Below, piece by piece: positions 5,842-52,529 of a DNA stretch of 64,000 bases; the first letter of the stretch is position 1, and every line of letters starts with the position of its first letter. The DNA is taken from positions 511 through 64,510 of the forward strand of contig CAZZKR010000007.1 in NCBI GenBank assembly GCA_964655015.1. Reading direction: 5' to 3'. This stretch comes from an uncultured Nitrososphaeria archaeon. Lineage in GTDB: Archaea; Thermoproteota; Nitrososphaeria_A; Caldarchaeales; Wolframiiraptoraceae. The notes beneath the pieces are model-generated. The model was not told where the DNA came from. It made no database searches and saw nothing but the letters and a program-made list of their open reading frames with translations. Position numbers and translations under genes: made by a program.

Positions 5842-5979
5842 GTTCGCATACAGACCCGGGCAGTATCGTGCGGGATTATTTACGTGTTTAACCCGTTAAT
5901 GAAGGGTTTGGGATAAAGGGTATATTAGGTGTGTCGTATACTCAATAGTGAAGTTTATGCGACTCAAGGTGTTAACTGT

Positions 5980-6708
5980 ATGTTGCGGATCGAAAATCTA
6001 ACAGTCGAAGTTGCTGGCAAGACCGTTATAAGAAATCTTACTTTAGAAGTCCCCAAAGGAGAACTACATGTTCTCTTCGGCCCTAATGGTTCGGGAAAGT
6101 CCACGTTAATTAAGACCATTCTCGGCTTCTCCAACTATAAGGTCGTTGAGGGAAGGATATACTTCAAAGATAGAGACATCACAAACATGCCTATAAATGA
6201 AAGGGTGAGGCTTGGTATAGGTGTCGTATTCCAGAATCCACCGGCGCTCAGGGGTGTCAAGTTAAAGGATCTTTTGAGCGGCGTTTTTGTCCAAGCGAAA
6301 GACGAATTAGGAAAACTCACTAAGGCGCTGAACTTAAATCATGAATTTCTCGAGCGGGACCTAAACGTCGACTTCTCAGGAGGTGAGATGAAACTATCCG
6401 AGATTCTCCAGCTGCTAGCCCAAAGACCAGATTTTGCGCTAATCGATGAGCCGGACTCGGGTGTTGATGTCGAAAATCTCGAGAGAATCGGGAAAATCCT
6501 GAATGAGTACTTAGCTGGGAGTACGGGTCTGCTTATAACTCACACAGGCCACATTCTTCGATACCTTAACGTGACAAAAGGTCATGTTATAATAAACGGA
6601 ACGATAGCATGCTCAGGCAATCCGCTCAAAATTCTTACACAGATACTTCATGAAGGTTATGGCTGGTGTGAAAAGTGTCTTTTAATAGGCAAGGGGGAAC
6701 TTCATTGA
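5980..6708 (+). CDS. sufC: Fe-S assembly ABC ATPase SufC (SmsC type)
   Basis: Walker A GPNGSGKST, FSGGE signature, DEPDSGVD, C-terminal C-x18-CxxC; ATG at 5980. Confidence 0.92.
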   Translation: MLRIENLTVEVAGKTVIRNLTLEVPKGELHVLFGPNGSGKSTLIKTILGFSNYKVVEGRIYFKDRDITNMPINERVRLGIGVVFQNPPALRGVKLKDLLSGVFVQAKDELGKLTKALNLNHEFLERDLNVDFSGGEMKLSEILQLLAQRPDFALIDEPDSGVDVENLERIGKILNEYLAGSTGLLITHTGHILRYLNVTKGHVIINGTIACSGNPLKILTQILHEGYGWCEKCLLIGKGELH

Positions 6709-22781: not shown

Positions 22782-23402
22782 CTACTCGCCAGTTACGATA
22801 TATTTTACGGCCTCGCCTATATAGGTGGCATGATCAGCTATTCTTTCCAAGTACCGCAAAATCAGTGCTGTAGCCATATCACATTTCTTTCCAGATGATG
22901 GGTTTTCGATTGCTTTCTTAACAAATCCTATGTAGGCCCTGTCAATCTCATCATCCATTAACTCTAGCTTTTTAGCTAATTCGACGTCTTTGTTTTTGAA
23001 AGCGATTACGCTTATGTGTATCATCTCGCATACCTTTTTGCCCGTTTTCTTGACTATTTCTTTATCACACTCGCTCAAATCACCAAACATGCTAAGAACT
23101 TGGGATATGTCATAGGCGTATCTGCCATACCTAAAGAAGCCGTATGCAATCTCCATACAGGAACGAATGTAGCGAAGATCACTCGCGACGGGTTGATATC
23201 TGGCAATCAGTTCCATGCTCAGCTCTGCCACCTCGCCCTCCAAGATACGCAATTGAGTAGATGTCTGAAAAACATCGTTGGAAACGTCGCGCCCACTCAC
23301 GTAACCCTCGATGGCCATTTCAACAACCTTGCTACTGATTGTTGCCATGTCCAATATCATGTTGGTGAGTTTTTCCAATCCCTCATCCAAAAGCCTCTTC
23401 AA
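22782..23402 (-). CDS. phoU: Phosphate transport system regulator PhoU
   Basis: IARYQPVASDLR...D.EID...RYLERIADHATYI.E; last gene of the pst operon. Confidence 0.95.
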   Translation of the reverse strand: MKRLLDEGLEKLTNMILDMATISSKVVEMAIEGYVSGRDVSNDVFQTSTQLRILEGEVAELSMELIARYQPVASDLRYIRSCMEIAYGFFRYGRYAYDISQVLSMFGDLSECDKEIVKKTGKKVCEMIHISVIAFKNKDVELAKKLELMDDEIDRAYIGFVKKAIENPSSGKKCDMATALILRYLERIADHATYIGEAVKYIVTGE

Positions 23403-24187
23403 ACCTTTACACCATCCAGAACCCTGCCTGTTATGAACAACTCCGTCAACTCGTTAACTGGAGACTTTAATACAGTTGCGGCAGGACCGAATTCTATCAA
23501 CTTGCCGTTGTAGATGAAAGCTATGAAGTCTGCTATCCTGCCCGCTTGGTCAACGCTATGCGTAACAGTTATGACTGTATATCTCTCCTTCAACCTAACC
23601 ATGAGTTCTTCTATTCTTTTTGTGTTATATAAATCGAGACCCGTCGTCGGTTCATCAAACAGTATAATCTCCGGTTCAAGTGCGAGTGCTCTTGCGATAC
23701 AAAGTCTTTGTTGTTGACCGCCGCTTAACCTCCATGCCGCCTCATTCAGCCTGTCTTTCACCTCATCCCACAGTCCAGCCTCTTTTAGTTTTTCTTCAGC
23801 CAGTCTTTCTAAGTTTTTTTTGCCCTTAGCTATACCGTTCAGCATAGGCCCTATTGTCACGTTTTTTAAGATTGAGAGGTGAGGAAACGGGTTTGGTTTC
23901 TGAAATACGTAACCCACCTTTCGTCTAAGGTATGTTGGGTCAAGCGTATAAGCATCATGAAACTTACCCTCTATACTAATCCAAACTTTCCCCGAGACTT
24001 TAACTCTTGGAATCAACTCAATAAGCCTATTAATGCTCCTTAACAACATGGTTTTTCCGCTACCTGAAGGTCCTATTATGGCGGTAACAGCGCACTTCGG
24101 AAAGTCTATACTAATGCCCTTAAGTACCTCTTTCTCATCTATGCTGACGCGCAAGTCTTTTACACTAACAGCTACTCCATTTAACAA
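23399..24187 (-). CDS. pstB: Phosphate ABC transporter ATPase
   Basis: GPSGSGKT.LLR.INR...VFQKPNPFP...LSGGQQQRLCIARALA.EP..ILFDEPT. Confidence 0.95.
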   Translation of the reverse strand: MLNGVAVSVKDLRVSIDEKEVLKGISIDFPKCAVTAIIGPSGSGKTMLLRSINRLIELIPRVKVSGKVWISIEGKFHDAYTLDPTYLRRKVGYVFQKPNPFPHLSILKNVTIGPMLNGIAKGKKNLERLAEEKLKEAGLWDEVKDRLNEAAWRLSGGQQQRLCIARALALEPEIILFDEPTTGLDLYNTKRIEELMVRLKERYTVITVTHSVDQAGRIADFIAFIYNGKLIEFGPAATVLKSPVNELTELFITGRVLDGVKV

Positions 24188-36716: not shown

Positions 36717-37820
36717 ACGTCACACAATAGGAAAAAAGCTCTACTAGTGCTTGAAGACGGAACAGTCCTACGTGGTGATGGGTTTGGAGCTTTAGGCGAG
36801 GCAATGGGCGAACTGGTTTTTAATACCAGTATGACAGGTTACGTGGAGGCATTAACAGACCCATCCTACGCTGGACAAATTTTGATGATGACTTATCCGC
36901 TTATCGGGAATTATGGTGTTTGTGATGAAGACTATGAATCAGATGGAATAAAAGTGGAAGGGTTCGTGGTTAGGGAGTTGTGCGAGACGCCCAGCAATTG
37001 GCGTTCAAAGAAGTCTTTATCGGAATTTTTAGAGGAGTACGGCGTTCCGGGAATTCAAGGTGTCGATACACGGATGCTTACAAGAAAAATTAGGATTTAT
37101 GGAACGATGAAAAGCACGCTTATAGTCTATGAGGGGAACGACGAGCCCAACATCGATGAAGTGATCGAGAAGACAAAGGCACAACCAGCAATAACTGAGT
37201 TGGACCTCGTAAACAAAGTTTCAGTTTCTAAGCCGACATTTATAGAGGGTGACAATGATTTGAACGTTGTTTTAATCGACTGCGGAGTTAAGTGGAGTAT
37301 AATAAGACTCCTCAAGAAAAATACAAACATAATTCTCGTGCCTTATAACACTCCAGCAAAAAAGATACTTGAATACGACCCTGATGGAGTTTTGATATCA
37401 AACGGTCCTGGAGACCCAATTAGGGTAAAAGAGACCATAAACACTGCAAAAGAATTGGTGGGGAAGGTAGTTCTTTTCGGCATCTGCCTCGGACATCAGA
37501 TAATATCGTTGGCCCTTGGTGCGAAGACATTCAAACTGAAGTTCGGTCATAGAGGTGCAAACCAACCGGTAAAAGATTTTGAAACTGGGAGAGTCTTTAT
37601 ATCGACTCAAAATCATGGTTTCGCGGTTACCAAAGAATCCCTCAAGGATGCTGGGCTGATTCTTACACAGATTAACCTAAATGATTACACGGTCGAAGGT
37701 GTGAAACATAAAGAGTTACCAATAAAGTCAGTCCAGTATCATCCTGAAGGAGGTCCCGGTCCTCATGACACGTATTTCTTCTTTGATGATTTTGTAAAAA
37801 CGATGAAGGAGTATAGATGA
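36717..37820 (+). CDS. carA: Carbamoyl-phosphate synthase small subunit
   Basis: [52 protein letters not shown]; start ambiguous (ACG 36717 or GTG 36747). Confidence 0.96.
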
Positions 37821-40800
37821 GTATGCCAAAACGTGAAGATATACGTAAAATCATGATAATCGGCTCCGGCCCTATTGTGATTGGACAGGCATGTGAATTT
37901 GACTACTCGGGAAGCCAAGCCTGCAAGGCGCTTAAAGAAGAAGGCTATGAGGTTGTGCTAGTAAACTCGAACCCAGCAACTATTATGACCGACCCCGAGA
38001 TGGCTGACAAGATATACATCGAACCGTTGACTCCCGAGGTAGTCGCGGAAATAATTAAAAAAGAATTGCCTGATGCTCTACTTCCAACACTCGGAGGGCA
38101 GACGGCTCTAAATATAGCGGCTGAACTTGCAGAAAGGGGCATTCTGGATGAATACGGTGTGGAACTTATTGGAGCAAAGTTGGAGGCTATAAAGAAGGGA
38201 GAGGACCGAATTCTTTTCAAAGAAGCTATGGAAAGAATAGGTCTGCCCGTTCCGAGAAGTTTTCCAGCATATTCTGTTGAGGAAGCGGTCGAGATAGCTG
38301 ATAAGTTGGGGTACCCAGTCATCATCAGACCTGCATACACTCTAGGCGGAACTGGTGGTGGAGTCGCATACAACAGGGAGGAACTGGAGCAGATAGTTGC
38401 CAGAGGTTTGAGTTACAGTCGTATAGGACAAGTTATAATCGATGAGTCCCTTATTGGATGGAAAGAGTACGAACTCGAGGTCATGAGGGACTTAGCGGAT
38501 AATGTCGTGATTATTTGTTCAATAGAAAATATGGACCCGATGGGCATACATACAGGTGATAGCATAACGGTCGCGCCGGCCCAAACGTTAACAGATAAAG
38601 AATACCAAGTTCTAAGGGACGCAGCAATAAAAGTCATACGTGAAGTAGGTGTTGAGACAGGTGGTTCGAACATACAGTTTGCAGTACATCCAGAGAACGG
38701 TCGTTTCATGGTTATAGAGATAAACCCCAGAGTTTCTAGGAGTTCGGCCTTAGCATCAAAAGCAACAGGGTATCCTATAGCAAAGGTAGCAGCGAAGCTT
38801 GCTGTCGGCTTATTGCTCGATGAGATTCCAAACGACATAACTAAGAAGACACCAGCATCTTTCGAACCAACGATAGATTACGTGGTAGTCAAAGTTCCCA
38901 GATGGCCCTTCGATAAGTTTCCCGAGGCTGATAAAACACTAACAACACAGATGAAGTCTGTTGGTGAAGTTATGGCAATAGGTCGTACTTTTGAGGAGGC
39001 TTTGCAGAAGGCAATAAGATCGTTGGAGATTGGGAGGTACGGTCTAGGAGCCGATGGAAAGGATGAGGAAATGCCTGATGTGAAGACCCTTCGCGATTAT
39101 CTCAGGATTCCTACACATAAACGGGTATTCTATATCAGGCATGCAATAAAGATCGGCATGAGTATTGACGAGATTTATGCGCTTACGAAAATCGATAGGT
39201 GGTTTATTCAGAAGATCAAGAACATAGTCGATATGGAGAACGAATTATCAAAGTACACGGTTGAAACTATTCCGAAGGAGGTGCTTCTTAAAGCCAAGAA
39301 GCTTGGCTTCTCAGATAGACAAATAGCATTTCTGTTAGGTACCGATGAACTCACAATCAGGGAGCTTAGAAAGAGGATGGGTATAGTGCCTGTGTATAAA
39401 ATGGTAGATACATGTGCGGCCGAATTCGAGGCAGAAACACCATACTACTATTCTTGTTACGATGATGAAGATGAAATACGACAGAGTGAAAAGAAGAAGA
39501 TAGTCATACTCGGCTCAGGGCCTAACAGGATTGGACAGGGAATCGAATTCGACTATTGTTGTGTACATGCTGTCAAGGCATTAAAGGAGGAGGGTTACGA
39601 AGTTATAATGGTGAATTGCAACCCTGAAACCGTAAGCACAGACTTCGATATTTCAGACAAGCTATACTTCGAGCCCTTAACATTTGAAGACGTGATGAAC
39701 ATAATTGAAAAAGAAAAGCCTGAAGGCGTAATCGTTCAATTTGGAGGTCAAACTCCCCTAAACTTAGCTATACCTCTGGAGAAGCAGGGCGTGAAGATTC
39801 TTGGAACAACTCCAGATGATATTGACAGGGCGGAGGACAGGAAGAGGTTTACTGAGGTTTTGGAAAAGCTCAAGATACCCCAACCGCCTTACGGAACGGC
39901 TATGAGCGTAGAAGAAGCAAAGGAGGTCGCCAGAAAACTTGGTTATCCCGTACTGGTAAGGCCCTCTTACGTTCTCGGAGGAAGGGCTATGGAGATAGTA
40001 TATGACGAAGAATCCCTAGTCAAGTATGTGAAAGAGGCGATAAAAGTTTCACCAGAACATCCGGTCTTAATAGACAAATTCTTAGAAGATGCCATAGAGG
40101 CCGAAATCGATGCAATCTCTGACGGAGAAAATGTGTATATAGGCGGTGTCATGGAGCACATAGAAGAGGCGGGAGTGCATTCAGGAGATGCTGCATGCGT
40201 TATACCGCCCTACAGTCTCAGCAAAGAAACGATCGAGACCATGATAGATTATACGCGCAAAATAGCGAGGGAGCTTCACGTTGTAGGTTTGATAAACGTC
40301 CAGTTCGCGATAAAGGACGGCAAAGTGTATGTGTTCGAGGCCAACCCCCGTGCCTCTAGGACTGTACCGTTTGTTAGCAAGGCTACTGGTGTACCGCTGG
40401 CAAAGATCGCAGCGAAGCTTATGGTAGGTCATCGCCTCAGCGAGTTTGGTCTAGGAGAAGTAGCAGAGTTAGATCATGTAGCAGTAAAAGAGGCAGTTTT
40501 CCCCTTTGCAAAGTTGCCTGGAGTAGACGTTGTGCTAGGTCCTGAGATGAAATCTACGGGCGAGGTAATGGGGATTGACAAAGATTTTGGAATAGCTTAC
40601 TATAAGGCTGAGCTGGCAGCGGATACGCGCCTGCCAACCGAAGGAAACGTCTTCATAAGTGTGAGGGACGACGAAAAGCTACGCATAATTCCAGTGGCTA
40701 AGAAGCTGAAGGAATTGGGTCTAAACATCTTGGCGACAAAAGGAACCGCAGAAGTTCTGGCCGCTGCCGGTATAGATGTTAAAATCGTACCAAAAATCGG

Positions 40801-41080
40801 TGAAGACCGTCCAGACATACTTGATTACATAAAGTCTGACAAAATAGACCTAATAATAAACGTCCCAAAGGGCAAAGGTTCCAAAGACGATGAATTCCAA
40901 ATAAGAAGAGCAGCGGTGGAACACAAAGTGCCATACATAACGACAATAGCAGCGGCTCAAGCTGCCGTTAAAGCGATCGAGAAGATAAAGAAGGAAGGCA
41001 CCTTTACCGTTAAATCATTGCAAGAATATCATGCTAAGCTACTCGTAAAAGAAAGCAAAAGTGTAAATCGTAACGCTTAG
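37817..41080 (+). CDS. carB: Carbamoyl-phosphate synthase large subunit
   Basis: [27 protein letters not shown]; duplicated ATP-grasp domains; MGS tail. Confidence 0.98.
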
Positions 41081-41818
41081 CTAACCCCGATACAGCTTTT
41101 TGAATGCCTTGTAGAGCGGTATCGCAACTGCTGTTCCTATTATCGACTGTCCAAGGTTCACAGGTATCTCAGCCAAAGCAGCGACGTTCAAAAAGAACTG
41201 CTCATACACGAAGTATCCCGAGACCATGAGAAGTCCGCCAAGGAGTAAAGAAAGTATTAACCAACCTTCGTAGCCTTTTTCTTTAACAACAAAGTAGACC
41301 GGCGTGGCTACAGCTGCGGCTGCCAAACCGATCCACGAGTAGGGTGCGATCGTGAAGATGAACGATTGCGCGCCTTCACCAATCGGGAATATAGAAACTT
41401 CAACCTCACCGACAAACAACATAACGCCTATCAGAAGTATGAGCACAAAGTACCCAGCAACGAGTGCATAAGACGCCACTGCAAGCTGCCATCCGCCCTT
41501 CTTCGGAGCTTTCTTGACAAGGTATCCGACAAGTGCCCCCTCGGCTGCCTTTATGAGTAATGTTGCAGGGGCATAATAGTAGTAACCTAGTGCTAAGTCA
41601 GCTATCATAGAACCTACGCCACCTGCAAATGCGGCTATTCCGGGCCCCATCGTGAGCGCCGTGAAGTATATCATAGTTTCACCCAAATTGAAGTAACCTC
41701 TGGTGGCTGGTACGTAAATGGATAGGACCATCGTGGCAACGGCGACTAGCGATGTAAAGACCGCTAACTTTGCTACGATTACGCTACGGCGCTGCATGCC
41801 AGAATTTTTCAAAAACAA
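41081..41818 (-). CDS. ECF transporter S component (substrate unknown)
   Basis: IYVPAT.GYFNLGE.MI...GG.GS..ADL..GY...AP.T..IK..EG...E.P.N..Q. Confidence 0.85.
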   Translation of the reverse strand: MFLKNSGMQRRSVIVAKLAVFTSLVAVATMVLSIYVPATRGYFNLGETMIYFTALTMGPGIAAFAGGVGSMIADLALGYYYYAPATLLIKAAEGALVGYLVKKAPKKGGWQLAVASYALVAGYFVLILLIGVMLFVGEVEVSIFPIGEGAQSFIFTIAPYSWIGLAAAAVATPVYFVVKEKGYEGWLILSLLLGGLLMVSGYFVYEQFFLNVAALAEIPVNLGQSIIGTAVAIPLYKAFKKLYRG

Positions 41819-41850
41819 AATATATAACCTTCAACCTACATATAGGTTGT

Positions 41851-43320
41851 ATGGGCTTCAGGTTTTCATGCGTGAGATGCGGCAGACATTTTGATAACAG
41901 AAAAAACCCGACTCGGTGTCCAAGCTGTGGCGGCCAAGCGCTTATCGAGTACGATTATGATCAACTTTCATCCACTATAAGTAGGGAGGAACTCGTTAAA
42001 ACTCCTCCAAGTATGTGGAAGTACTCGTTTCTCATACCACTCACGAAAGACGACTCTGTTGTGTCTTTGGGCGAAGGTGGTACTTTCCTCCAGAAAGCTG
42101 AAAGGTTAGGAGAGGAGCTTGGAATCAAGAACGTGTATTTGAAGAATGAAACGGTAAACCCTACCGGATCTTTCTTAGACAGAGGAGTTTCTCTCGAAGC
42201 AACGAAGGCAAAGAGTATGGGCTACCGCATCCTCAAGTGCGCGAGCAGAGGAAATTTGGGCGCCTCAGTCGCTGCGTATGCAGCAAAAGCCGGTTTAAAC
42301 TGCAGGATCTATACAACATTGGGCGTCGAGTTAGGTAAGCTTTATCAGGCCGTTGTCTGTGGCGCTGAGATAAACTTTGTTAAGACATACGACGATGCCC
42401 TTAAGGTTTTAGAGAATCCATACGAGGGAGAGTATATAATATCTGTGACGAACCCGTTTTTTCTTGAAGGAATAAAAACTACTGGATACGAGGTTTGCGA
42501 GCAACTTTGTTGGTCTCCTCCTGAGTTCTTCATCGTACCCGTCGGCGAAGGTGGACACTTATCGATGATATGGAAAGCTCTGAGGGAATTAAGCTATGTT
42601 GGGCTTATTGATGATGTGCATTCAAGAATGTTAGGCGTTCAGGCAAAAAGCTGCTCACCTATAGTTGAAGCATTCAGAAAGAATCTTGACAAACCTGCCA
42701 AACCTAAAGATTTTGGGATGACGTTCCACGACATAGCAGTCAGGCAACCTATGTTGGGAGAACTTTGCCTGAAAGCTTTAAGGGAATCAAATGGTTATGC
42801 TCTCGCAGTATCCGAGAATAAGATACTTGAAGCCACAAGACTTTTAGCCAAATGTGAGGGCATATTTGCCGAACCAGCCGCAGCCTCAACGATAGCAGCC
42901 CTTAAGGTTGCCCTAGAAGACGGAATAATAGAAAGATCCGATAAAGTTGTATGTATAATAACGGGTGCAGGTTTAAAGGATCCAGCAGCAGTCAAGAGTT
43001 TAATAAAGCACTCGGCCACGGAAGCTCCTATAGCACTTATGCTTGCATCCTCGTTAGATAATCGATTAGGAAGGACAAAGCGCTTAATACTAAAAATTTT
43101 ACAAAGACATCCAAGTCATGGATATCTTTTATGGAAAACTCTTACGCAAGAATTCGGTCTGACAATCACGTTACCATCAATGTACCAACATCTACAGGAA
43201 CTTTTGGCCGCCGGCTTAGTAGCGGTTGCAAACGAGGGAGGCCCATCGGAAAGAAAAAAGAAAGTTTATGTTTTGACGAAGAAGGGAGAAACAATTCTGT
43301 CATCAGAGTTCGTGACATGA
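41851..43320 (+). CDS. Threonine-synthase-fold protein lacking the PLP Lys, fused to a C-terminal PadR wHTH
   Basis: N-terminal CxxC/CxxC ribbon; SLGEGGT, NPTGSFLDRG (K to L), AS.GN, VPVG.GG, EPA.A, TG.GLKD; then HGY....L...YQHL..L...GLV...RK.Y.LT.KG. Confidence 0.8.
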   Translation: MGFRFSCVRCGRHFDNRKNPTRCPSCGGQALIEYDYDQLSSTISREELVKTPPSMWKYSFLIPLTKDDSVVSLGEGGTFLQKAERLGEELGIKNVYLKNETVNPTGSFLDRGVSLEATKAKSMGYRILKCASRGNLGASVAAYAAKAGLNCRIYTTLGVELGKLYQAVVCGAEINFVKTYDDALKVLENPYEGEYIISVTNPFFLEGIKTTGYEVCEQLCWSPPEFFIVPVGEGGHLSMIWKALRELSYVGLIDDVHSRMLGVQAKSCSPIVEAFRKNLDKPAKPKDFGMTFHDIAVRQPMLGELCLKALRESNGYALAVSENKILEATRLLAKCEGIFAEPAAASTIAALKVALEDGIIERSDKVVCIITGAGLKDPAAVKSLIKHSATEAPIALMLASSLDNRLGRTKRLILKILQRHPSHGYLLWKTLTQEFGLTITLPSMYQHLQELLAAGLVAVANEGGPSERKKKVYVLTKKGETILSSEFVT

Positions 43321-43363
43321 GTTTTGTCAAATTTATTAGCTGGTTTTCATCGAAAATAAATGC

Positions 43364-43912
43364 ATGAAGATTGTTGTGGCGATAACAGGGGCTTCGGGCG
43401 CACCAATCGCTGAAAGGTTGTTAGAAGTTTTGAAAGCGGGTAAGCACCAAGTTTACTTGATTCTTTCTAGGAACGGCGAAGCTCTCATCCGGACCGAAGC
43501 AAACCTAGAAAAGGTAAAATCATATGCAGACAAAATTTTTCGGGAAGACGAATTTGAGGCTCCACTCTCAAGCGGCTCTTTTTTCGTTGACGGAATGGTG
43601 GTCGTGCCGTGCTCCATGAAGACGCTTGCCGCAATTGCCAACGGTATGGAAGAAAACTTGATAGTAAGAGCGGCACTCGTCTCTCTTAAGCAGAGAAGGA
43701 AGCTGATTCTAGTACCGCGTGAAACACCTTTAGCCGAACCATACATTATCAATATGCTTAAGGCAACTAGGGCGGGAGCAGTCGTGTTACCACCGGTTCT
43801 AACTTTCTATCATTCACCGAAGACCATTCAGGACCTTATAGACTTTATAGTCGGGAGGATTTTGGAAATCCTCGGGATTGAGCATAATTTATACAAAAGG
43901 TGGGGAGAATGA
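43364..43912 (+). CDS. ubiX: Flavin prenyltransferase UbiX
   Basis: VAITGASG...SSGS...M.VVPCSMKTLA.IA.G...NLI.RAA...LK.RR.L.LVPRETP...PP...FY..P. Confidence 0.96.
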   Translation: MKIVVAITGASGAPIAERLLEVLKAGKHQVYLILSRNGEALIRTEANLEKVKSYADKIFREDEFEAPLSSGSFFVDGMVVVPCSMKTLAAIANGMEENLIVRAALVSLKQRRKLILVPRETPLAEPYIINMLKATRAGAVVLPPVLTFYHSPKTIQDLIDFIVGRILEILGIEHNLYKRWGE

Positions 43913-45207
43913 GGGATTTCCTGAGCGAGCTTGAGAGGGAAGGTGAACTCATTAACATCGTAAAACCGGTCTCGACAAAATTTGAGGCAGCCGCAATAAT
44001 GAAGAAGCTTGATGGGAGGCCCGTACTCTTTCACAAGATTAAGGAATGTGAAGGGTTCAGGTTAGCAGCGAACATCTGCGGTAGTAGAAGGATTTTAGCA
44101 AAGGCCTTAGGTGTGAGCGAGGACGCTATACTCAGGAAGCTGAACGATGCCATAGAAAACCCAAGCAGGGGCGAAATCGTCGATGATGCGCCGTGTCAGC
44201 AAGTAATCGAGAGAAATCCTGACCTAAGAAAATTTCCGTTCTTGATTTTCGGCCAACACGATGGTGGACCTTATACTACCGCCAGCATAATTATTGCCCA
44301 TGACAAGGAGTATGGTTTTAATGCAAGTTTCCACAGACTGATGCTTATAGGTAAGAACAGAGTCGTCGCTAGAATACTCCCAAGACATCTTGATGAGTTT
44401 ATACGCAGGGGCAATAGAAATGTTGCAATAACTTTCGGAAACCATCCTGCATTCATGATAGCGGCGGCCATTACTTGGAAGATAGGTGTCAGCGAGTTAG
44501 ATATAGCAAACTCGTTAAGGAAGATGAGATATGCGCGATGCGTAACGAATGAACTACTCGTACCCGCAGACTGTGAAGTTGTGATGGAGGGTGTTGTAAC
44601 AGATGAATGGGCAGACGAAGGTCCAATAATTGACATAACGGGTACATACGACGTTGTGAGAAAGCAGAGGGTAATTGAGATAGAGTGCGTAACTATGAGA
44701 CGTGACCCAATCTTCCAAGCAATATTGTTGGCGGGTAGCGAGCATAAAATCCTGATGGGCACACCGAGAGAAGCAACGATATACAAAGAGGTTGGAAAAG
44801 TTTGCGAATGTTTAGACGTTAGATTGACGCCTGGTGGTTGTAAGTGGTTCAATGCTGTCGTAAAGATAAGAAAAAGACATGCAGATGATGGAAAAAAAGC
44901 CATAGAGGCGGCATTTAGGGGACACGGTAGTCTAAAACATGTTCTCGTAGTTGACGAAGACATAAACATCGACGACCCGCTTGAGCTGGAATGGGTATTG
45001 GCGACAAGGGTGCAGATGGACAAGTGCCTAGTGCTCAAACCTAATGAGTACGGCTCTTCTTTGGACCCATCTGCTGACCAGTACACACGAAAGACATGCA
45101 AAGCTGGAATAGATGCAACATTGCCTTTAGACGCTGACCTGAAGCTCTTTAAAAAGGCCAAGATACCAGGAGAGGAAAGTATAAAGATTGAGGACTACAT
45201 AAAGTAA
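43909..45207 (+). CDS. ubiD: UbiD-family prFMN decarboxylase, probable anhydromevalonate phosphate decarboxylase
   Basis: FHRLM...E..MEG...EGP..DITGTYD...VVDED; sits next to ubiX and acnX. Confidence 0.85.
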   Translation: MRDFLSELEREGELINIVKPVSTKFEAAAIMKKLDGRPVLFHKIKECEGFRLAANICGSRRILAKALGVSEDAILRKLNDAIENPSRGEIVDDAPCQQVIERNPDLRKFPFLIFGQHDGGPYTTASIIIAHDKEYGFNASFHRLMLIGKNRVVARILPRHLDEFIRRGNRNVAITFGNHPAFMIAAAITWKIGVSELDIANSLRKMRYARCVTNELLVPADCEVVMEGVVTDEWADEGPIIDITGTYDVVRKQRVIEIECVTMRRDPIFQAILLAGSEHKILMGTPREATIYKEVGKVCECLDVRLTPGGCKWFNAVVKIRKRHADDGKKAIEAAFRGHGSLKHVLVVDEDINIDDPLELEWVLATRVQMDKCLVLKPNEYGSSLDPSADQYTRKTCKAGIDATLPLDADLKLFKKAKIPGEESIKIEDYIK

Positions 45208-45232
45208 CTAAAACTGCACAATCGTTGGTGTA

Positions 45233-46420
45233 ATGAAAATGTACCTTTCAAAAGAAGAAGAACGTATGCTAGTCGGAGAGTGCGGATATGCCGCGCAAAA
45301 AGCTATGGAGATACTCGTAGCGCTTGGAAAAATTTACGATGCTGAGAAGTTAGTTCCCATCACAAGTGCTCACATATCGGGTGTATCGTATGCTAACGTG
45401 GGCGAAGATGGGCTAGAGTTTTTGGAAGAACTTGCGTCTGATGGCAAAGTTCTCGTGCAGACGACACTTAATCCTGCGGGCATGGATTTGGACAGATGGA
45501 GTTTGATGGGCATTGATAGAGAGTTCGCGGAGAATCAGCTAAGGGTGATAGATGTATACAGAAGGATAGGTGTCAAGATAACGTGCACATGTACTCCATA
45601 CCTTGTTGGCAATGAGCCTAGAATGGGCGACCACATCGCGTGGAGTGAAAGCTCGGCAGTGGTTTATGCAAATTCAGTCATAGGCGCTAAGACAAACAGA
45701 GAGAGCGGAATAAGCGCTTTGGCGGCCGCGATAACTGGTAGGACGCCCTTTTATGGTCTACACCTCAAAGAAAACCGTCAGCCAACCGTAGAGGTTAGGG
45801 TACCACAACCAAAGGGGGCGTTTGAGTTTGCTTGCCTCGGCATAGTCGTCGGAAGGTTAGTCGGCGACGGCATACCTCTTTTCAGGGGTATGCTTCACGC
45901 TGAGCCAGATGAATTAAAGGCGTTGGGCGCGGCGTTGGCCAGCGTCGGCGGCGTGCCCATGTTCCACGTGGAAGGTATAACGCCGGAGGCTGGAGAGTAT
46001 ATAGATAGACCCATGGAGAAACTCACCGTTACAGAATCTGATATAATAAGTGTCAAAGAAGAGTATGCCAGCGAGGTGGATCCGGATTTGATATTCCTTG
46101 GCTGTCCCCATCTTTCACTTACAGAGCTTAAAAGGATTGCATCATTCTTGGCCGGGAAAAGGGTTAGAAAAAAGCTCTGGTTATGCTGCTCGAGGAGCGT
46201 CAAGCTGGAGGCAGATAGGCTGGGCATAACACAGGTTGTAGAAGCTGCTGGCGGTACGGTCGTATGCGATACCTGTCCGATAGTCGCGCCTGTAAAGGAT
46301 TTAGGGGTAAAAGCCATCGCTACGAACTCGGCCAAAGGAGCATGGTACTCAAGAAACTTAAACAATTTATGTGTGAGATTGCTTCCGACGGAAGAGTGCC
46401 TCAGGGAAGCGACCAGATGA
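45233..46420 (+). CDS. Aconitase X large subunit (DUF521), probable phosphomevalonate dehydratase
   Basis: AH.SGVSY...TTLNP...TCTPY...W.ESSAV..ANSV.GA.TNRE...GCPH.S...DTC..V.P...TNS.K. Confidence 0.9.
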   Translation: MKMYLSKEEERMLVGECGYAAQKAMEILVALGKIYDAEKLVPITSAHISGVSYANVGEDGLEFLEELASDGKVLVQTTLNPAGMDLDRWSLMGIDREFAENQLRVIDVYRRIGVKITCTCTPYLVGNEPRMGDHIAWSESSAVVYANSVIGAKTNRESGISALAAAITGRTPFYGLHLKENRQPTVEVRVPQPKGAFEFACLGIVVGRLVGDGIPLFRGMLHAEPDELKALGAALASVGGVPMFHVEGITPEAGEYIDRPMEKLTVTESDIISVKEEYASEVDPDLIFLGCPHLSLTELKRIASFLAGKRVRKKLWLCCSRSVKLEADRLGITQVVEAAGGTVVCDTCPIVAPVKDLGVKAIATNSAKGAWYSRNLNNLCVRLLPTEECLREATR

Positions 46421-46818
46421 ACGCTGTTTTAGAGTTAAGGGGTAGAGTCATAAAAGGGGGAAGAGCCGAAGGTGAAGCGTTAGTTTCGTCGCAACCGATA
46501 TCCTTCTATGGGGGCGTTGACCCTGATACGGGAATAATCAAGGAAAAGGGACATGAATTAGAAGGAAAAAGCATAGCTGGAAAGGTGCTGATCTTCCCGC
46601 ATGGAAAGGGCTCGACTGTCGGCTCTTACATAATCTACAGGTTGAAGAAAAAGGGCATGGCACCAAGCGCGATAATAAATCAGAGATGCGAGCCTATAGT
46701 TGCTGTCGGTGCGATAATAAGTGACATACCCGCTGTCGATTGTGTTGACACTAGCAAATTTAAGAGCGGTGACTGGGTAAAGATAGAAGACGGAAAAATA
46801 ATCGTGGAGCGGCGTTAA
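46417..46818 (+). CDS. Aconitase X swiveling small subunit (DUF126)
   Basis: G..EGEALVS..PISF.GGVDP.TG......H.L.G.SI.GK.L.FP.GKGST.GS; ATG at 46417 overlaps the upstream stop. Confidence 0.92.
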   Translation: MNAVLELRGRVIKGGRAEGEALVSSQPISFYGGVDPDTGIIKEKGHELEGKSIAGKVLIFPHGKGSTVGSYIIYRLKKKGMAPSAIINQRCEPIVAVGAIISDIPAVDCVDTSKFKSGDWVKIEDGKIIVERR

Positions 46819-47981
46819 AGCTCGCTTACGAAGAACTCCTCAATTTTTTCAGTAATGTAGCGTAATTCGTCGGTGCTAACTTTAGGATGCACTGGTAAGG
46901 AAAGCACTTCGTCCGAAGCCTCCTCGGATATGGGCAGCAAGCCCCTCTGGTAACCATAAAGTCCCATGTAGAGCGGATGTAAGTGAACCGGGGTTGGCCA
47001 GTAGACTGCTGTCTCAATACCGTTCTCCATGAGATACTTCTGTAGCGCATCTCTTGACTTTTTAGGCCCGCTCTTAACTCTTATTGTGTAAACATAATGT
47101 GACGGTTTAACGTAAGAAGGGAAAGTTGGGGTGACAACACCGGATATGCCTTTAAGATAACTTCCTAGGATTTCTGCATTTCTTGCTCTGATGTCATTCA
47201 GCCTATCAAGTTTCGAAAGTTGTACAAGACCAATCGCAGCCTCAAATTCCGTCATCCTATAATTTAGTCCCGGCATTACAGCCATATGCGCTTCTTCCTG
47301 ACCATGCGTTCTGAAGAGTCTGCACTTCCTAGCGTATTCGGCATCGTTGGTGGTTATCATTCCCCCCTCACCGGTCGTCATGTTCTTGCTGGCGAAGAAG
47401 CTAAAGCAGCCCATATGGCCAATGCTGCCAACCTTTCTACCTTTGTAGAGCGCTCCATGCGCCTGAGCAGCGTCCTCGATAACGATTATCCCCTTATCTT
47501 CGGCGATTTCCATTATGGCGTCCATCTCGGCGGGGCATCCGTAAACATGCACGGGTATTACCGCCTTTGTGTTATCTGTTATAGCATTTTGGAACTTTTC
47601 AGGATCCATGCAAAGCGTTACGGGGTCTACGTCCACGAATACGGGCTTAGCACCTTGGATGAGCACGACGTTTGCTGTGGCTACAAAAGTCATCGCAGGT
47701 ACTATGACCTCATCACCGTGTCCTATACCGCATGCTGCGAGAGCAGTATGCAGAGCTGCGGTTCCAGAATTCACAGCAATTGCATACTCAACACCTATGT
47801 ATGATGCGAACATTCTCTCAAAATCGCTGACCTTCTCGCCGCTACCGTGCCATGTGGTAAGCATGCCCGTTCTGAGAACTTCAGAAACCTCCTCTATCTC
47901 AACTTCATCGATTACGGGTTGATTTATTCGAATCTTTCTATCGATCAACTCTCTACGCCCCGAACGAGTACGTTTAAACAT
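46815..47981 (-). CDS. DegT/DnrJ/EryC1/StrS PLP aminotransferase
   Basis: A..NSGTAALH..L...GDEVIVP..TF.AT...IEDAAQAHGA...FSF..SKNMTTGEGG..G.NYRM. Confidence 0.93.
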   Translation of the reverse strand: MFKRTRSGRRELIDRKIRINQPVIDEVEIEEVSEVLRTGMLTTWHGSGEKVSDFERMFASYIGVEYAIAVNSGTAALHTALAACGIGHGDEVIVPAMTFVATANVVLIQGAKPVFVDVDPVTLCMDPEKFQNAITDNTKAVIPVHVYGCPAEMDAIMEIAEDKGIIVIEDAAQAHGALYKGRKVGSIGHMGCFSFFASKNMTTGEGGMITTNDAEYARKCRLFRTHGQEEAHMAVMPGLNYRMTEFEAAIGLVQLSKLDRLNDIRARNAEILGSYLKGISGVVTPTFPSYVKPSHYVYTIRVKSGPKKSRDALQKYLMENGIETAVYWPTPVHLHPLYMGLYGYQRGLLPISEEASDEVLSLPVHPKVSTDELRYITEKIEEFFVSEL

Positions 47982-51563: not shown

Positions 51564-52529
51564 TCATTTCCAGAAACATTCCTCAACGTACCTCTCGCCT
51601 CCATCCGGAAAGATGGTCACCAGCAAACCTTCCTCCAACTCTCCAGCTACTTTTAAGGTAGCGGCGAGTGCGGCACCTGACGATACACCAACGAGTATTC
51701 CCTCAATCCTTGCAAGCTCTTTAACCATCTCATAAGCCTCGCTTGTGGATACGCGTATGCGTATATCGCTAAAGTTCTCGTCGTATATCTTCGGCCTAAT
51801 GCTTGTATCCATGTGTTTTAATCCCTCGATTTTATGAAAGTGTGAATCTGGTTGAACCTCCACGAGCTTTATGTTTTGATTGAATTCCTTTAACTTCCTA
51901 CCGGCTCCCATGAGCGTTCCAGAGGTCCCTACGCCGGCGATAAAATGTGTCAATCTCCCCTTAGTTTGTTTGATTATTTCAGGACCTGTCGTCGTGTAAT
52001 GGGCCAGCCAGTTTGATTCGTTGTCGTACTGGTTCGCGTAAAAGTATGCCCTAGGATCTTGCTCATATAGTTCACGGGCTTTTTTAATTGCCCCGTCTAG
52101 TCCGTCCACAGGGTTTGTACACACGACCTCGGCTCCATAGGCTTTCATAATAGCAATCTTCTTAGCACTGATATTCGCCGGGACCAACAGCTTGCATCTG
52201 TAACCTAGGATCGTAGCAATCATCGAATAAGAAATTCCCATGTTACCGGAAGTGGCATCAAGGATTGTTTTGTCGGGTGTTAGAGCCCCATTCTTTATGG
52301 CACTTAGGATTATGCTCAGGGCAGCCCTATCCTTGACAGAGCCCCCTGGGTTAAAAAACTCAAGTTTAGCGTAAATCTTAACACCGTTCTTTATACCATG
52401 TTTTGCGGGTAGTTTTTCAAGTCTACAAAGAGGTGTATTACCGATGAGTTTTAGAAGTTTATCGTAAACTCTAAGATGTTGCGCCTCATAACCGGCTTGG
52501 ACCCATGAATTGTGTCGATTAATCGACAC
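51564..52529 (-). CDS. cysM: Cysteine synthase family PLP enzyme (CysM-like)
   Basis: IGNTPL...AKLE..NPGGSVKDRAA, ATSGN.G, NQY.N..N..AH..TTGPEI, GVGTSGT..G, GVSSGA, IFPDGGERY. Confidence 0.88.
   Translation of the reverse strand: MSINRHNSWVQAGYEAQHLRVYDKLLKLIGNTPLCRLEKLPAKHGIKNGVKIYAKLEFFNPGGSVKDRAALSIILSAIKNGALTPDKTILDATSGNMGISYSMIATILGYRCKLLVPANISAKKIAIMKAYGAEVVCTNPVDGLDGAIKKARELYEQDPRAYFYANQYDNESNWLAHYTTTGPEIIKQTKGRLTHFIAGVGTSGTLMGAGRKLKEFNQNIKLVEVQPDSHFHKIEGLKHMDTSIRPKIYDENFSDIRIRVSTSEAYEMVKELARIEGILVGVSSGAALAATLKVAGELEEGLLVTIFPDGGERYVEECFWK

Follow-up and report, generated by a model that had tools for sequence, protein, structure and literature searches.

Domain Organization of the ThrC-PadR Protein

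The DNA analyzed here, referred to as the window, is a stretch of 64,000 nucleotides (64 kb) from an uncultured Nitrososphaeria archaeon (assembly GCA_964655015.1, contig CAZZKR010000007.1). Positions 41851–43320 of its forward strand are occupied by a gene that starts with ATG and encodes a protein of 489 amino acids (aa), in which a zinc ribbon, a threonine synthase (ThrC) fold devoid of its lysine, and a PadR-type winged helix follow one another. The gene divergent to it encodes the S component of an energy-coupling factor (ECF) transporter, and a 12-bp palindrome is located between the two. The finding is more general than this single gene suggests. The protein belongs to a large, phylum-spanning archaeal family of lysine-less ThrC-PadR proteins, which are predicted to be regulators and are paired with a PdxU2-like ECF S component; clade 1 of this family, to which the window protein belongs, also has a defined palindromic candidate site.

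The N-terminal zinc ribbon (41869–41928, plus strand) has the pattern C7-x2-C10 ... C23-x2-C26. Its Pfam match, at aa 4–30, is weak, and all four cysteines are invariant in an alignment of 46 family members. The same ribbon was found in unfused archaeal ThrC proteins, for example at locus L006, and thus it was inherited from the enzyme. The ribbon is followed by the ThrC-like domain of the fold-type II enzymes dependent on pyridoxal 5'-phosphate (PLP), covering aa 71–372 (42061–42966, plus strand); in a Pfam scan of the whole protein, it matched the PALP family (PF00291) with an E-value of 1.6e-61. After a flexible linker (aa 386–405; 43006–43065, plus strand), which is variable in the alignment, the protein ends with a PadR-type winged helix-turn-helix (aa 413–483; 43087–43299, plus strand). 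This domain matched PF03551 with an E-value of 1.9e-10 and 41 bits against a cut-off of 27, over profile positions 1–73 of 75. Residues G424, Y425, Y445, Q446, and H447 of the PadR domain are invariant among the 46 aligned proteins, and the recognition helix, P-S-x-Y-Q-H-L, is near-invariant across the regulator family.

An AlphaFold2 model of the protein, built on 46 homologues, had a mean predicted local distance difference test score (pLDDT) of 85 and a predicted template modeling score of 0.77. It contains a ThrC fold, a disordered linker at aa 386–405 with pLDDT below 50, and a winged helix at aa 408–484 with the topology helix-helix-helix-strand-strand, the two strands forming the wing. 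A full in-frame PadR winged helix-turn-helix, as described in an earlier sequence-only reading of the window, is therefore confirmed both by a PF03551 match above the gathering score and by the model. The top Foldseek matches of the model were the solved threonine synthases 6cgq, 2d1f, and 2zsj (E-value about 1e-28, template modeling score about 0.86 on the target, sequence identity 35–37%). No PDB entry combines a ThrC fold and a winged helix in one solved structure.

The position of the lysine that forms the Schiff base with PLP is occupied by Leu109, encoded by an in-frame TTA codon at 42175–42177 on the plus strand, (42175 − 41851)/3 being 108. The motif reads NPTGSF-L-DRG, and threonine synthases have NPTGSF-K-DRG at the same site; a change of TTA to AAA or AAG takes two base changes. 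The sequence-only reading had held that a single-base error was unlikely here, and the wider data agree with it. Residues other than lysine were found at this site in five other Candidatus Terraquivivens genomes as well as in every close homologue, and thus Leu109 is not a sequencing error.

Distribution of the Family and Loss of the Lysine

The window belongs to a member of the genus Ca. Terraquivivens, of the Aigarchaeota/Nitrososphaerota lineage. Intact orthologues were found in five Ca. Terraquivivens genomes, with 77–91% amino acid identity to the window protein; the closest of them is that of Ca. T. yellowstonensis (91%). These five same-genus loci, along with two unfused ThrC proteins, were the yield of a scan of genome contigs with the window protein alone, and the taxonomic breadth of the family was drawn from a metagenome scan and protein searches. 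The best 120 homologues, clustered at 90%, all have both the PALP and PadR domains and span Aigarchaeota, Bathyarchaeia, Nitrososphaerales, other Thermoproteota, and Thorarchaeota. Lysine was found in none of the 119 close homologues with a readable motif, which have Ile (62), Val (28), Leu (23), Met (3), Thr (2), or Ser (1) instead.

The metagenome scan added 80 loci, and three clades of fused proteins emerged. Clade 1, which includes the window protein, has the motif NPTGSF[ILVM]DRG. Proteins of clade 2 are about 466 aa long, belong mostly to Bathyarchaeia, and have the motif NPTNS[FY][RK]DR[CSA]; in a second search, arginine was found at the lysine site in all 116 readable sequences of this clade. 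Clade 3 is a small group with the motif EPTGSY[LF]DRS.

When 1.84 billion representatives were searched with a profile, the hits extended to the boundary between the family and the true enzymes; the best 150 sequences, at no more than 50% identity, were analyzed. Among these, 70 proteins are fused to PadR and have a readable site: 68 have a residue other than lysine and 2 retain it. Of the 77 unfused proteins, 74 have lysine and 3 do not, and the three exceptions are C-terminally truncated fragments nested within clade 1; all 74 full-length unfused proteins retain lysine. A neighbor-joining tree shows each of clade 1, clade 2, and the unfused enzymes as a coherent group, and the fused representatives have different residues at site 109 (I/L/V/M/R/T). 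Thus, loss of the lysine and fusion to PadR go together in almost perfect covariation. The sequence-only reading had itself proposed this comparison as its test, and the outcome that would have spoken against it, namely that most fused homologues keep the lysine, fails decisively.

A small subgroup of clade 2 retains lysine within the motif NPTNSFKDRS (L040, L048, L060, L074, P0298, and P0299). These proteins lack Arg204 and are found in the same ECF S component context, and one of them, P0298, is basal in clade 2. They could be evolutionary intermediates that still bind PLP covalently. A further group of ThrC-like proteins, about 610–630 aa long, has lysine in the motif NPTG[VAG]FKDRG and is extended at the C-terminus by about 200 aa, which are not PadR (L073, L075, L080, and L083–L086; P0308, P0316, P0323, P0334–P0336, P0343, P0351, and P0372).

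Residues of the Presumed Cofactor Pocket

Pocket residues were tabulated for 84 proteins, including 12 unfused ThrC proteins, and were additionally aligned with solved ThrC. The residues retained in all fused clades are F/Y108, D110, R111, G134, N135, S139, G232-x-G234, E341-P342, T371, and G374. We take several of these to be PLP contacts, with N135 reaching O3', T371 (in T-G-x-G) reaching N1, the glycine-rich loop holding the phosphate, and the aromatic residue lying on the ring. Four positions are replaced in the fused clades. Besides K109, these are T133 of the S-T-G-N motif (T in 10 of the 12 unfused ThrC, variable in the fused proteins), R204 of N-P-x-R-x-E-G (R in 9 of 12; F, L, V, or A in the fused proteins), and N236 of the glycine-rich loop G-N-x-G-N (N in 10 of 12; H, T, or L in the fused proteins). 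By analogy with the enzymes of Thermus thermophilus and Mycobacterium tuberculosis, T133, R204, and N236 presumably hold the phosphate and carboxylate of O-phospho-homoserine, and catalysis is likewise assigned to the lost residues. In the unfused enzymes, the replaced positions are invariant or near-invariant, and they vary among the fused proteins; the kept ones are invariant across phyla, which points to selection on a conserved pocket. The earlier statement that the other fold-type II motifs remain accordingly holds for the presumed PLP contacts and does not hold for Thr133, Arg204, and Asn236.

All known fold-type II PLP enzymes depend on the Schiff-base lysine. The protein is very probably a non-enzymatic regulator, as judged from its sequence and those of its homologues. 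Repurposing of an enzyme fold as a one-component sensor, as first suggested from the sequence, agrees with the covariation of lysine loss and PadR fusion. Two of the ligands named in that suggestion, phospho-homoserine and threonine, are unlikely, since the positions presumed to bind the substrate phosphate and carboxylate are replaced.

The ECF S Component Adjacent to the Regulator Gene

The divergent gene at 41081–41797 (minus strand) encodes a PdxU2/HmpT-like S component of 238 aa, the proposed target of the regulator. It matched PF07155 in Pfam with an E-value of 3e-25, and its ATG at position 41797 is conserved in the alignment of six Terraquivivens loci. Among distant members, a Thorarchaeota genome and a metagenome contig of 455 kb also have a PF07155 gene beside the regulator gene.

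Adjacency was defined as the presence of an S gene within 700 bp, with S genes being found by a hidden Markov model built from archaeal S components. In clade 1, the S gene is adjacent to the regulator gene in 23 of the 30 assessable loci, almost always upstream and divergent. In clade 2, it is adjacent in 20 of 22 assessable loci, where it lies directly downstream on the same strand. No S gene was found next to unfused ThrC in any of six loci. The occurrence of two arrangements in two clades points to functional coupling rather than inherited gene order. These data, together with the palindrome in the common promoter region described below, favor the proposal of vitamin uptake as a target made in the sequence-only reading, because the S gene is a conserved neighbor across phyla. 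The regulator probably controls the adjacent S gene as well as its own gene.

When the S component of the window was compared with all PDB chains, the only match was chain S of 4HZU (E-value 2e-7); a profile of 20 archaeal S components gave the same single match with an E-value of 7.9e-26. RibU, FolT, ThiT, BioY, and PanT were not matched by this profile among the PDB chains even at an E-value of 1. The matched chain is HmpT/PdxU2 of Lactobacillus brevis, from which pyridoxamine was extracted as the substrate (PMC4860826). Of the three vitamin B6 transporters known from prokaryotes, two are PdxU and PdxU2/HmpT, both members of PF07155 (PMC9997740). The archaeal S components thus resemble HmpT/PdxU2 in matching it as the sole solved structure, in sharing PF07155, and in conserving four of its six named pocket residues. 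Of these four, Y120, N140, and Q143 occur without change or variation in the archaeal proteins, and E41 corresponds to D or E. The archaeal S components differ from HmpT/PdxU2 at H84 and Q87, which are replaced by an invariant lysine and an invariant glutamate, and by an insertion of about 70 aa between helices in many archaeal proteins, including that of the window. That aldehyde vitamers, for example pyridoxal, might be bound by the invariant lysine as a Schiff base is pure speculation.

The operons of clade 2 have the order regulator gene, ECF S component gene, and gene of the PurM superfamily (AIRS/AIRS_C, 337 aa). The last was found after the S gene in 20 clade-2 loci (L052:8017-9030 and 19 others, for example among L038–L071) and is absent from clade 1. 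Its best NCBIfam matches are HypE (127 bits) and ThiL, thiamine-phosphate kinase (96 bits), both below the cut-off. The PurM-superfamily protein may modify or phosphorylate the imported compound.

No EcfT gene was found in the window, where the only ABC ATPases are generic ones (23399–24187 and 5929–6708), and the energizing ECF module is presumably encoded elsewhere. Scans of the window for signature motifs of pdxS, pdxT, thiC, and pdxK/thiD gave no match, which is uninformative for a piece of 64 kb.

A Palindromic Candidate Operator

The regulator gene and the S gene are separated by 53 bp. Across the six Terraquivivens loci, this intergenic region contains an invariant block, AAACAAAATATATAA, followed by CCTAYATATAGG at positions 41835–41846 of the window. 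The first element (41813–41827, plus strand) is a probable transcription factor B recognition element and TATA box, that is, a predicted promoter. Its center lies about 28 bp before the regulator ATG and, on the other strand, about 26 bp from the ATG of the S gene. The position of this TATA-like box is consistent with a leaderless regulator transcript. The second element is a 12-bp palindrome that reads CCTACATATAGG in the window (family consensus CCTATATATAGG; no strand assigned). It lies 5–16 bp before the regulator ATG and is unique in the window when up to one mismatch is allowed. The palindrome would thus overlap the transcription start of the regulator gene and abut the common TATA box, as in a classic archaeal repressor site.

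A similar arrangement, in which ATATATAAG is followed by a spacer of about 8 bp and then by CCTATATATAGG, was found upstream of clade-1 regulator genes of unrelated lineages, including Thorarchaeota. For a count, CCTATATATAGG or its symmetric variant CCCATATATGGG was sought with at most one mismatch within 150 bp upstream of the start codon. The palindrome was found in 25 of 35 clade-1 loci, mostly at −7 to −43, and only three copies were present in the remaining 423 kb or so of these loci. At this background density, the expected number of upstream copies is about 0.04. One of the three outside copies is located 280 bp upstream of the regulator start at L025, apparently between the divergent pair. 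The other two, each with one mismatch, lie at about position 11860 of L009, between a DJ-1/PfpI gene and an acetyltransferase gene, and at about position 7880 of L019; they may mark extra members of the regulon.

The variant CCCATATATGGG, present in some lineages, carries the symmetric pair of changes T3C/A10G. Such symmetry supports recognition by a dimer and is not a requirement of a TATA box. The near-invariance of the recognition helix likewise fits a common operator. The palindrome was found in none of the 33 clade-2 loci and none of the three clade-3 loci, and thus another site must serve there.

Proposed Mechanism and Alternatives

We propose that the window protein is a one-component autoregulator of a B6-type transporter, with a sensor derived from ThrC, and assign to this reading as a whole a probability of roughly 55%. 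DNA binding, the role of the palindrome as operator, repression together with its direction, and the identity of the ligand are all inferred, and the scheme would be as follows. The lysine-less ThrC domain would be a receptor that binds a phosphorylated B6 vitamer (PLP, pyridoxine 5'-phosphate, or pyridoxamine 5'-phosphate) reversibly and non-covalently, and it would also be a dimerization module. ThrC enzymes and PadR proteins are both dimers. The two C-terminal winged helices of the dimer would bind the palindrome, which has the TATA box on one side and the start of the regulator gene on the other and is located beside the divergent promoter of the S gene. Occupancy of the pocket by the ligand would alter the affinity for DNA through the linker. 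The cofactor-bound form would repress both genes and the free form would release them, so that uptake would be tuned to the intracellular level of the cofactor. For a target that serves uptake, repression by the bound form is the simplest logic; activation or the opposite polarity is also possible.

A phosphorylated B6 vitamer is the best candidate for the ligand because the presumed PLP contacts are kept, the partner is PdxU2-like, and there is a bacterial precedent in PdxR. We nevertheless regard a B6 vitamer as a tentative assignment, judged from sequence comparisons to have slightly less than an even chance. The most specific version of the proposal, in which an archaeal B6 sensor with a lysine-less ThrC fold binds PLP reversibly, represses PdxU2-type uptake through CCTATATATAGG, and represents a convergent reinvention of PdxR across phyla, is to be taken with still more reserve.

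Several observations weigh against the proposed scheme. Typical PadR repressors leave the DNA upon ligand binding, the reverse of the behavior that feedback on uptake would require, and the roles of the pocket residues were assigned by analogy with ThrC and other fold-type II structures. No adjacent S gene is present in 7 of the 30 clade-1 loci, and 10 of 35 lack the palindrome at up to one mismatch. The palindrome is AT-rich and TATA-like, and promoter function could explain a part of its conservation. Given the replacements of H84 and Q87, the compound transported may be something other than a B6 vitamer, and the HypE/ThiL-like gene of clade 2 fits a role in the supply of a thiamine precursor at least as well as one in B6 supply. 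Moreover, HmpT itself was initially predicted to be a carrier of hydroxymethylpyrimidine (PMC4860826).

The last points lead to an alternative in which the regulator and its target are the same and the ligand and transported substrate is a thiamine precursor, either hydroxymethylpyrimidine or its phosphate. These compounds resemble B6 vitamers, HmpT, which alone among solved structures is related to the S component, was first taken to carry hydroxymethylpyrimidine, two of the six HmpT pocket residues differ, and ThiL is the second-best NCBIfam match of the PurM-superfamily protein in 20 clade-2 loci, though below the cut-off. We consider this alternative unlikely. The sensor is derived from a PLP enzyme and keeps the presumed contacts to O3' (N135), N1 (T371), and the phosphate (glycine-rich loop), a dedicated thiamine regulator, ThiR, already exists in archaea, and the PurM-like gene is absent from clade 1. 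In addition, mass spectrometry of HmpT gave pyridoxamine and not hydroxymethylpyrimidine (PMC4860826).

It is similarly doubtful that the protein senses an amino acid or an intermediate of the threonine pathway (threonine, homoserine, O-phospho-homoserine, or serine), possibly in the form of an external aldimine with PLP that is bound non-covalently, and controls a transporter of undefined substrate and, in Terraquivivens, perhaps the mevalonate genes too. The fold is indeed that of threonine synthase, with a score of 302.8 bits against the cut-off of 303 for NCBIfam PRK08197; GabR-type regulators of the MocR family sense amino compounds through PLP (PMC5320631); and, in all six Terraquivivens genomes, the regulator gene is followed at a distance of 43 bp by a mevalonate cluster in the same orientation. 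However, no fused clade has kept the presumed substrate binders Arg204, Thr133, and Asn236, the 72 other fused loci do not have the mevalonate genes beside the regulator gene, and no palindrome precedes ubiX, the first gene of that cluster, which has its own conserved TATA-like element.

A third alternative concerns the DNA site. CCTATATATAGG could be a mere TATA box of a bidirectional promoter, with the regulator binding elsewhere or not binding DNA. The core of the palindrome is TATATATA, and its distance of 43 bp from the start codon of the S gene is a workable TATA position for an mRNA with a short leader. This explanation has little probability in view of the CC/GG flanks, which are conserved across phyla, and the symmetric co-variation between CCTATATATAGG and CCCATATATGGG. 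Moreover, the element is all but confined to one promoter (about 430 kb of archaeal sequence contain 25 copies upstream and 3 at other places), and a separate ATATATAAG box is located upstream at the right distance for the start of the regulator gene itself.

Finally, it is highly improbable that the protein is still an enzyme, be it an altered threonine synthase or one with another PLP-dependent or PLP-independent activity, to which PadR adds the moonlighting function of a "trigger enzyme": the protein does pass the cut-off of TIGR00260, NCBI and JGI name it threonine synthase, and a few fused proteins retain the lysine (those at L040, L048, L060, and L074, as well as P0298 and P0299), but the essential residue is gone in 68 of 70 fused proteins, its varied replacements fit a relaxed catalytic constraint with the pocket retained, and the lysine-keeping fused proteins also lack Arg204 and occur in the same ECF S component context.

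Comparison with Known Regulators

The closest functional parallel to the proposed autoregulator of B6-type uptake is found in bacteria. The regulons of bacterial PdxR include pdxU together with pdxST and pdxK, and MocR regulators, to which PdxR belongs, were reported to be absent from Archaea (PMC5320631). Both systems are one-component and have as sensor a PLP-enzyme fold that is no longer enzymatic, and the pairing of PdxR with pdxU is paralleled by that of the regulator with a PdxU2-like S gene. Their construction differs: PdxR/MocR proteins combine an N-terminal GntR winged helix with a fold-type I aminotransferase domain, whereas here a C-terminal PadR domain is combined with a fold-type II ThrC domain. 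MocR proteins retain the lysine and bind PLP covalently, and the ThrC-PadR family is without it. They also differ in taxonomic domain, MocR being found in Bacteria and the ThrC-PadR family in Archaea. The window protein works, according to the proposed scheme, like a MocR regulator and is not a member of that family.

Among archaeal regulators, ThiR consists of a ThiN-like domain and a DNA-binding domain, and RbkR of a riboflavin kinase and a winged helix, as reportedly described by Rodionova and coworkers in 2017. They would share with the ThrC-PadR family the fusion of an enzyme domain of vitamin biochemistry to a DNA-binding domain and a location beside genes of vitamin synthesis or uptake in archaea. 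They differ from it in having unrelated folds and vitamins.

Canonical archaeal ThrC of the PRK08197 type has the same zinc ribbon and ThrC fold, with 35–39% identity and a template modeling score of about 0.86 to solved ThrC. It differs from the window protein by the presence of Lys109, Thr133, Arg204, and Asn236 and by the absence of PadR and of an adjacent ECF S gene. On sequence grounds, this zinc-ribbon ThrC is the evident ancestor of the sensor domain. With the PadR family (PF03551), the protein shares a winged helix scoring above the threshold and a palindromic candidate operator that overlaps its own promoter, as is typical of autoregulated repressors. Classical PadR proteins, of about 110–180 aa, carry the winged helix N-terminally and a dimerization helix C-terminally; here, the PadR domain is C-terminal to an enzyme-derived module of 400 aa, which presumably provides dimerization and ligand sensing. 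The protein is best classified as a predicted enzyme-derived one-component regulator of a vitamin or cofactor and is a member of neither PdxR/MocR, ThiR, nor RbkR.

Full-text literature searches returned no description of the ThrC-PadR architecture or family, in agreement with the earlier remark that no characterized regulator of this architecture is known; a mention is possible in Kaur and Subramanian (2017), who dealt with the zinc ribbon of ThrC. How archaea transport vitamin B6 and regulate it is virtually uncharted, and the family offers a concrete candidate for a regulator, an operator, and a transporter. In prokaryotes overall, only three B6 transporters had been characterized according to a 2023 survey (PMC9997740). 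The family also presents a clean natural case of an enzyme turned into a receptor, in which the few lysine-retaining members look like intermediates, and the palindrome is a motif for finding more regulon members in complete genomes.

Annotation of the Family

Members of the family are labeled "threonine synthase" by NCBI and JGI wherever they are named. Although it lacks defining features of a threonine synthase, the window protein passes the cut-off of TIGR00260 (thrC) with 194.7 bits against 167.1. Additionally, NCBIfam NF004170 (PRK05638), a 442-position "equivalog" named threonine synthase, aligns end to end with fused proteins, PadR included, as with window:41851-43317 and L052:5995-7392; a clade-2 member scored 371 bits against the cut-off of 421. 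These two matches, one passing its cut-off and the other spanning PadR, account for the uniform naming. PRK05638 appears to describe regulators rather than enzymes, and annotation pipelines probably mislabel the family systematically. Consequently, when the metabolism of uncultured archaea is reconstructed, a threonine synthase may be attributed to genomes that lack one. If the reading as a B6 sensor is true, thousands of "threonine synthase" annotations are wrong.

Neighboring Genes

Five Ca. Terraquivivens genomes have the same gene order around the regulator gene for more than 20 kb. As described in the sequence-only reading, a gap of 43 bp (43321–43363) separates the regulator gene from the next gene on the same strand, and the ECF gene is divergent. 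The downstream genes (43364–46818, all on the plus strand) are ubiX (43364–43912), a gene for a UbiD-family decarboxylase (43900–45207), which overlaps ubiX by 13 bp, and the genes for the large (45233–46420) and small (46264–46818) subunits of AcnX. The small-subunit gene, as listed, overlaps the large-subunit gene by 157 bp, and its family match begins at residue 57; its true start is probably a methionine codon near 46432. We take ubiX, the ubiD-family gene, and the acnX genes to belong to the archaeal modified mevalonate pathway, so that the label "mevalonate operon" is reasonable.

Regulation of lipid-precursor synthesis, which the sequence-only reading had raised as an option, is not borne out. 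No mevalonate gene was found among the recurrent neighbor clusters of the 72 fused loci outside Terraquivivens, and the palindrome is absent from the region upstream of ubiX. That region contains a block, TCAAATTTATTA (window positions 43331–43340), about 25–30 bp before the ubiX ATG, which is conserved in all six Terraquivivens genomes. This block is probably the TATA box of ubiX itself, which would imply a promoter independent of the regulator gene. That the mevalonate genes lie next to the regulator gene is a coincidence of gene order confined to this genus.

No separate intact thrC was found within the window. The sole other PALP gene (51564–52529, minus strand) encodes a CysM/CysK-like cysteine synthase, which scored 359 bits to TIGR01138, just below the cut-off. 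Another PLP-dependent enzyme, an aminotransferase of the DegT/DnrJ/EryC1 type, is encoded at 46815–47981 (minus strand), and an aminotransferase gene directly follows the regulator gene in metagenome locus L008. The presence of genes for PLP-dependent enzymes nearby is possibly a coincidence. On the other side, the carA and carB genes for the small and large subunits of carbamoyl-phosphate synthase, the latter of 1087 aa, occupy 36747–41080 on the plus strand; they adjoin the S gene and converge on it, and represent an ordinary housekeeping context.

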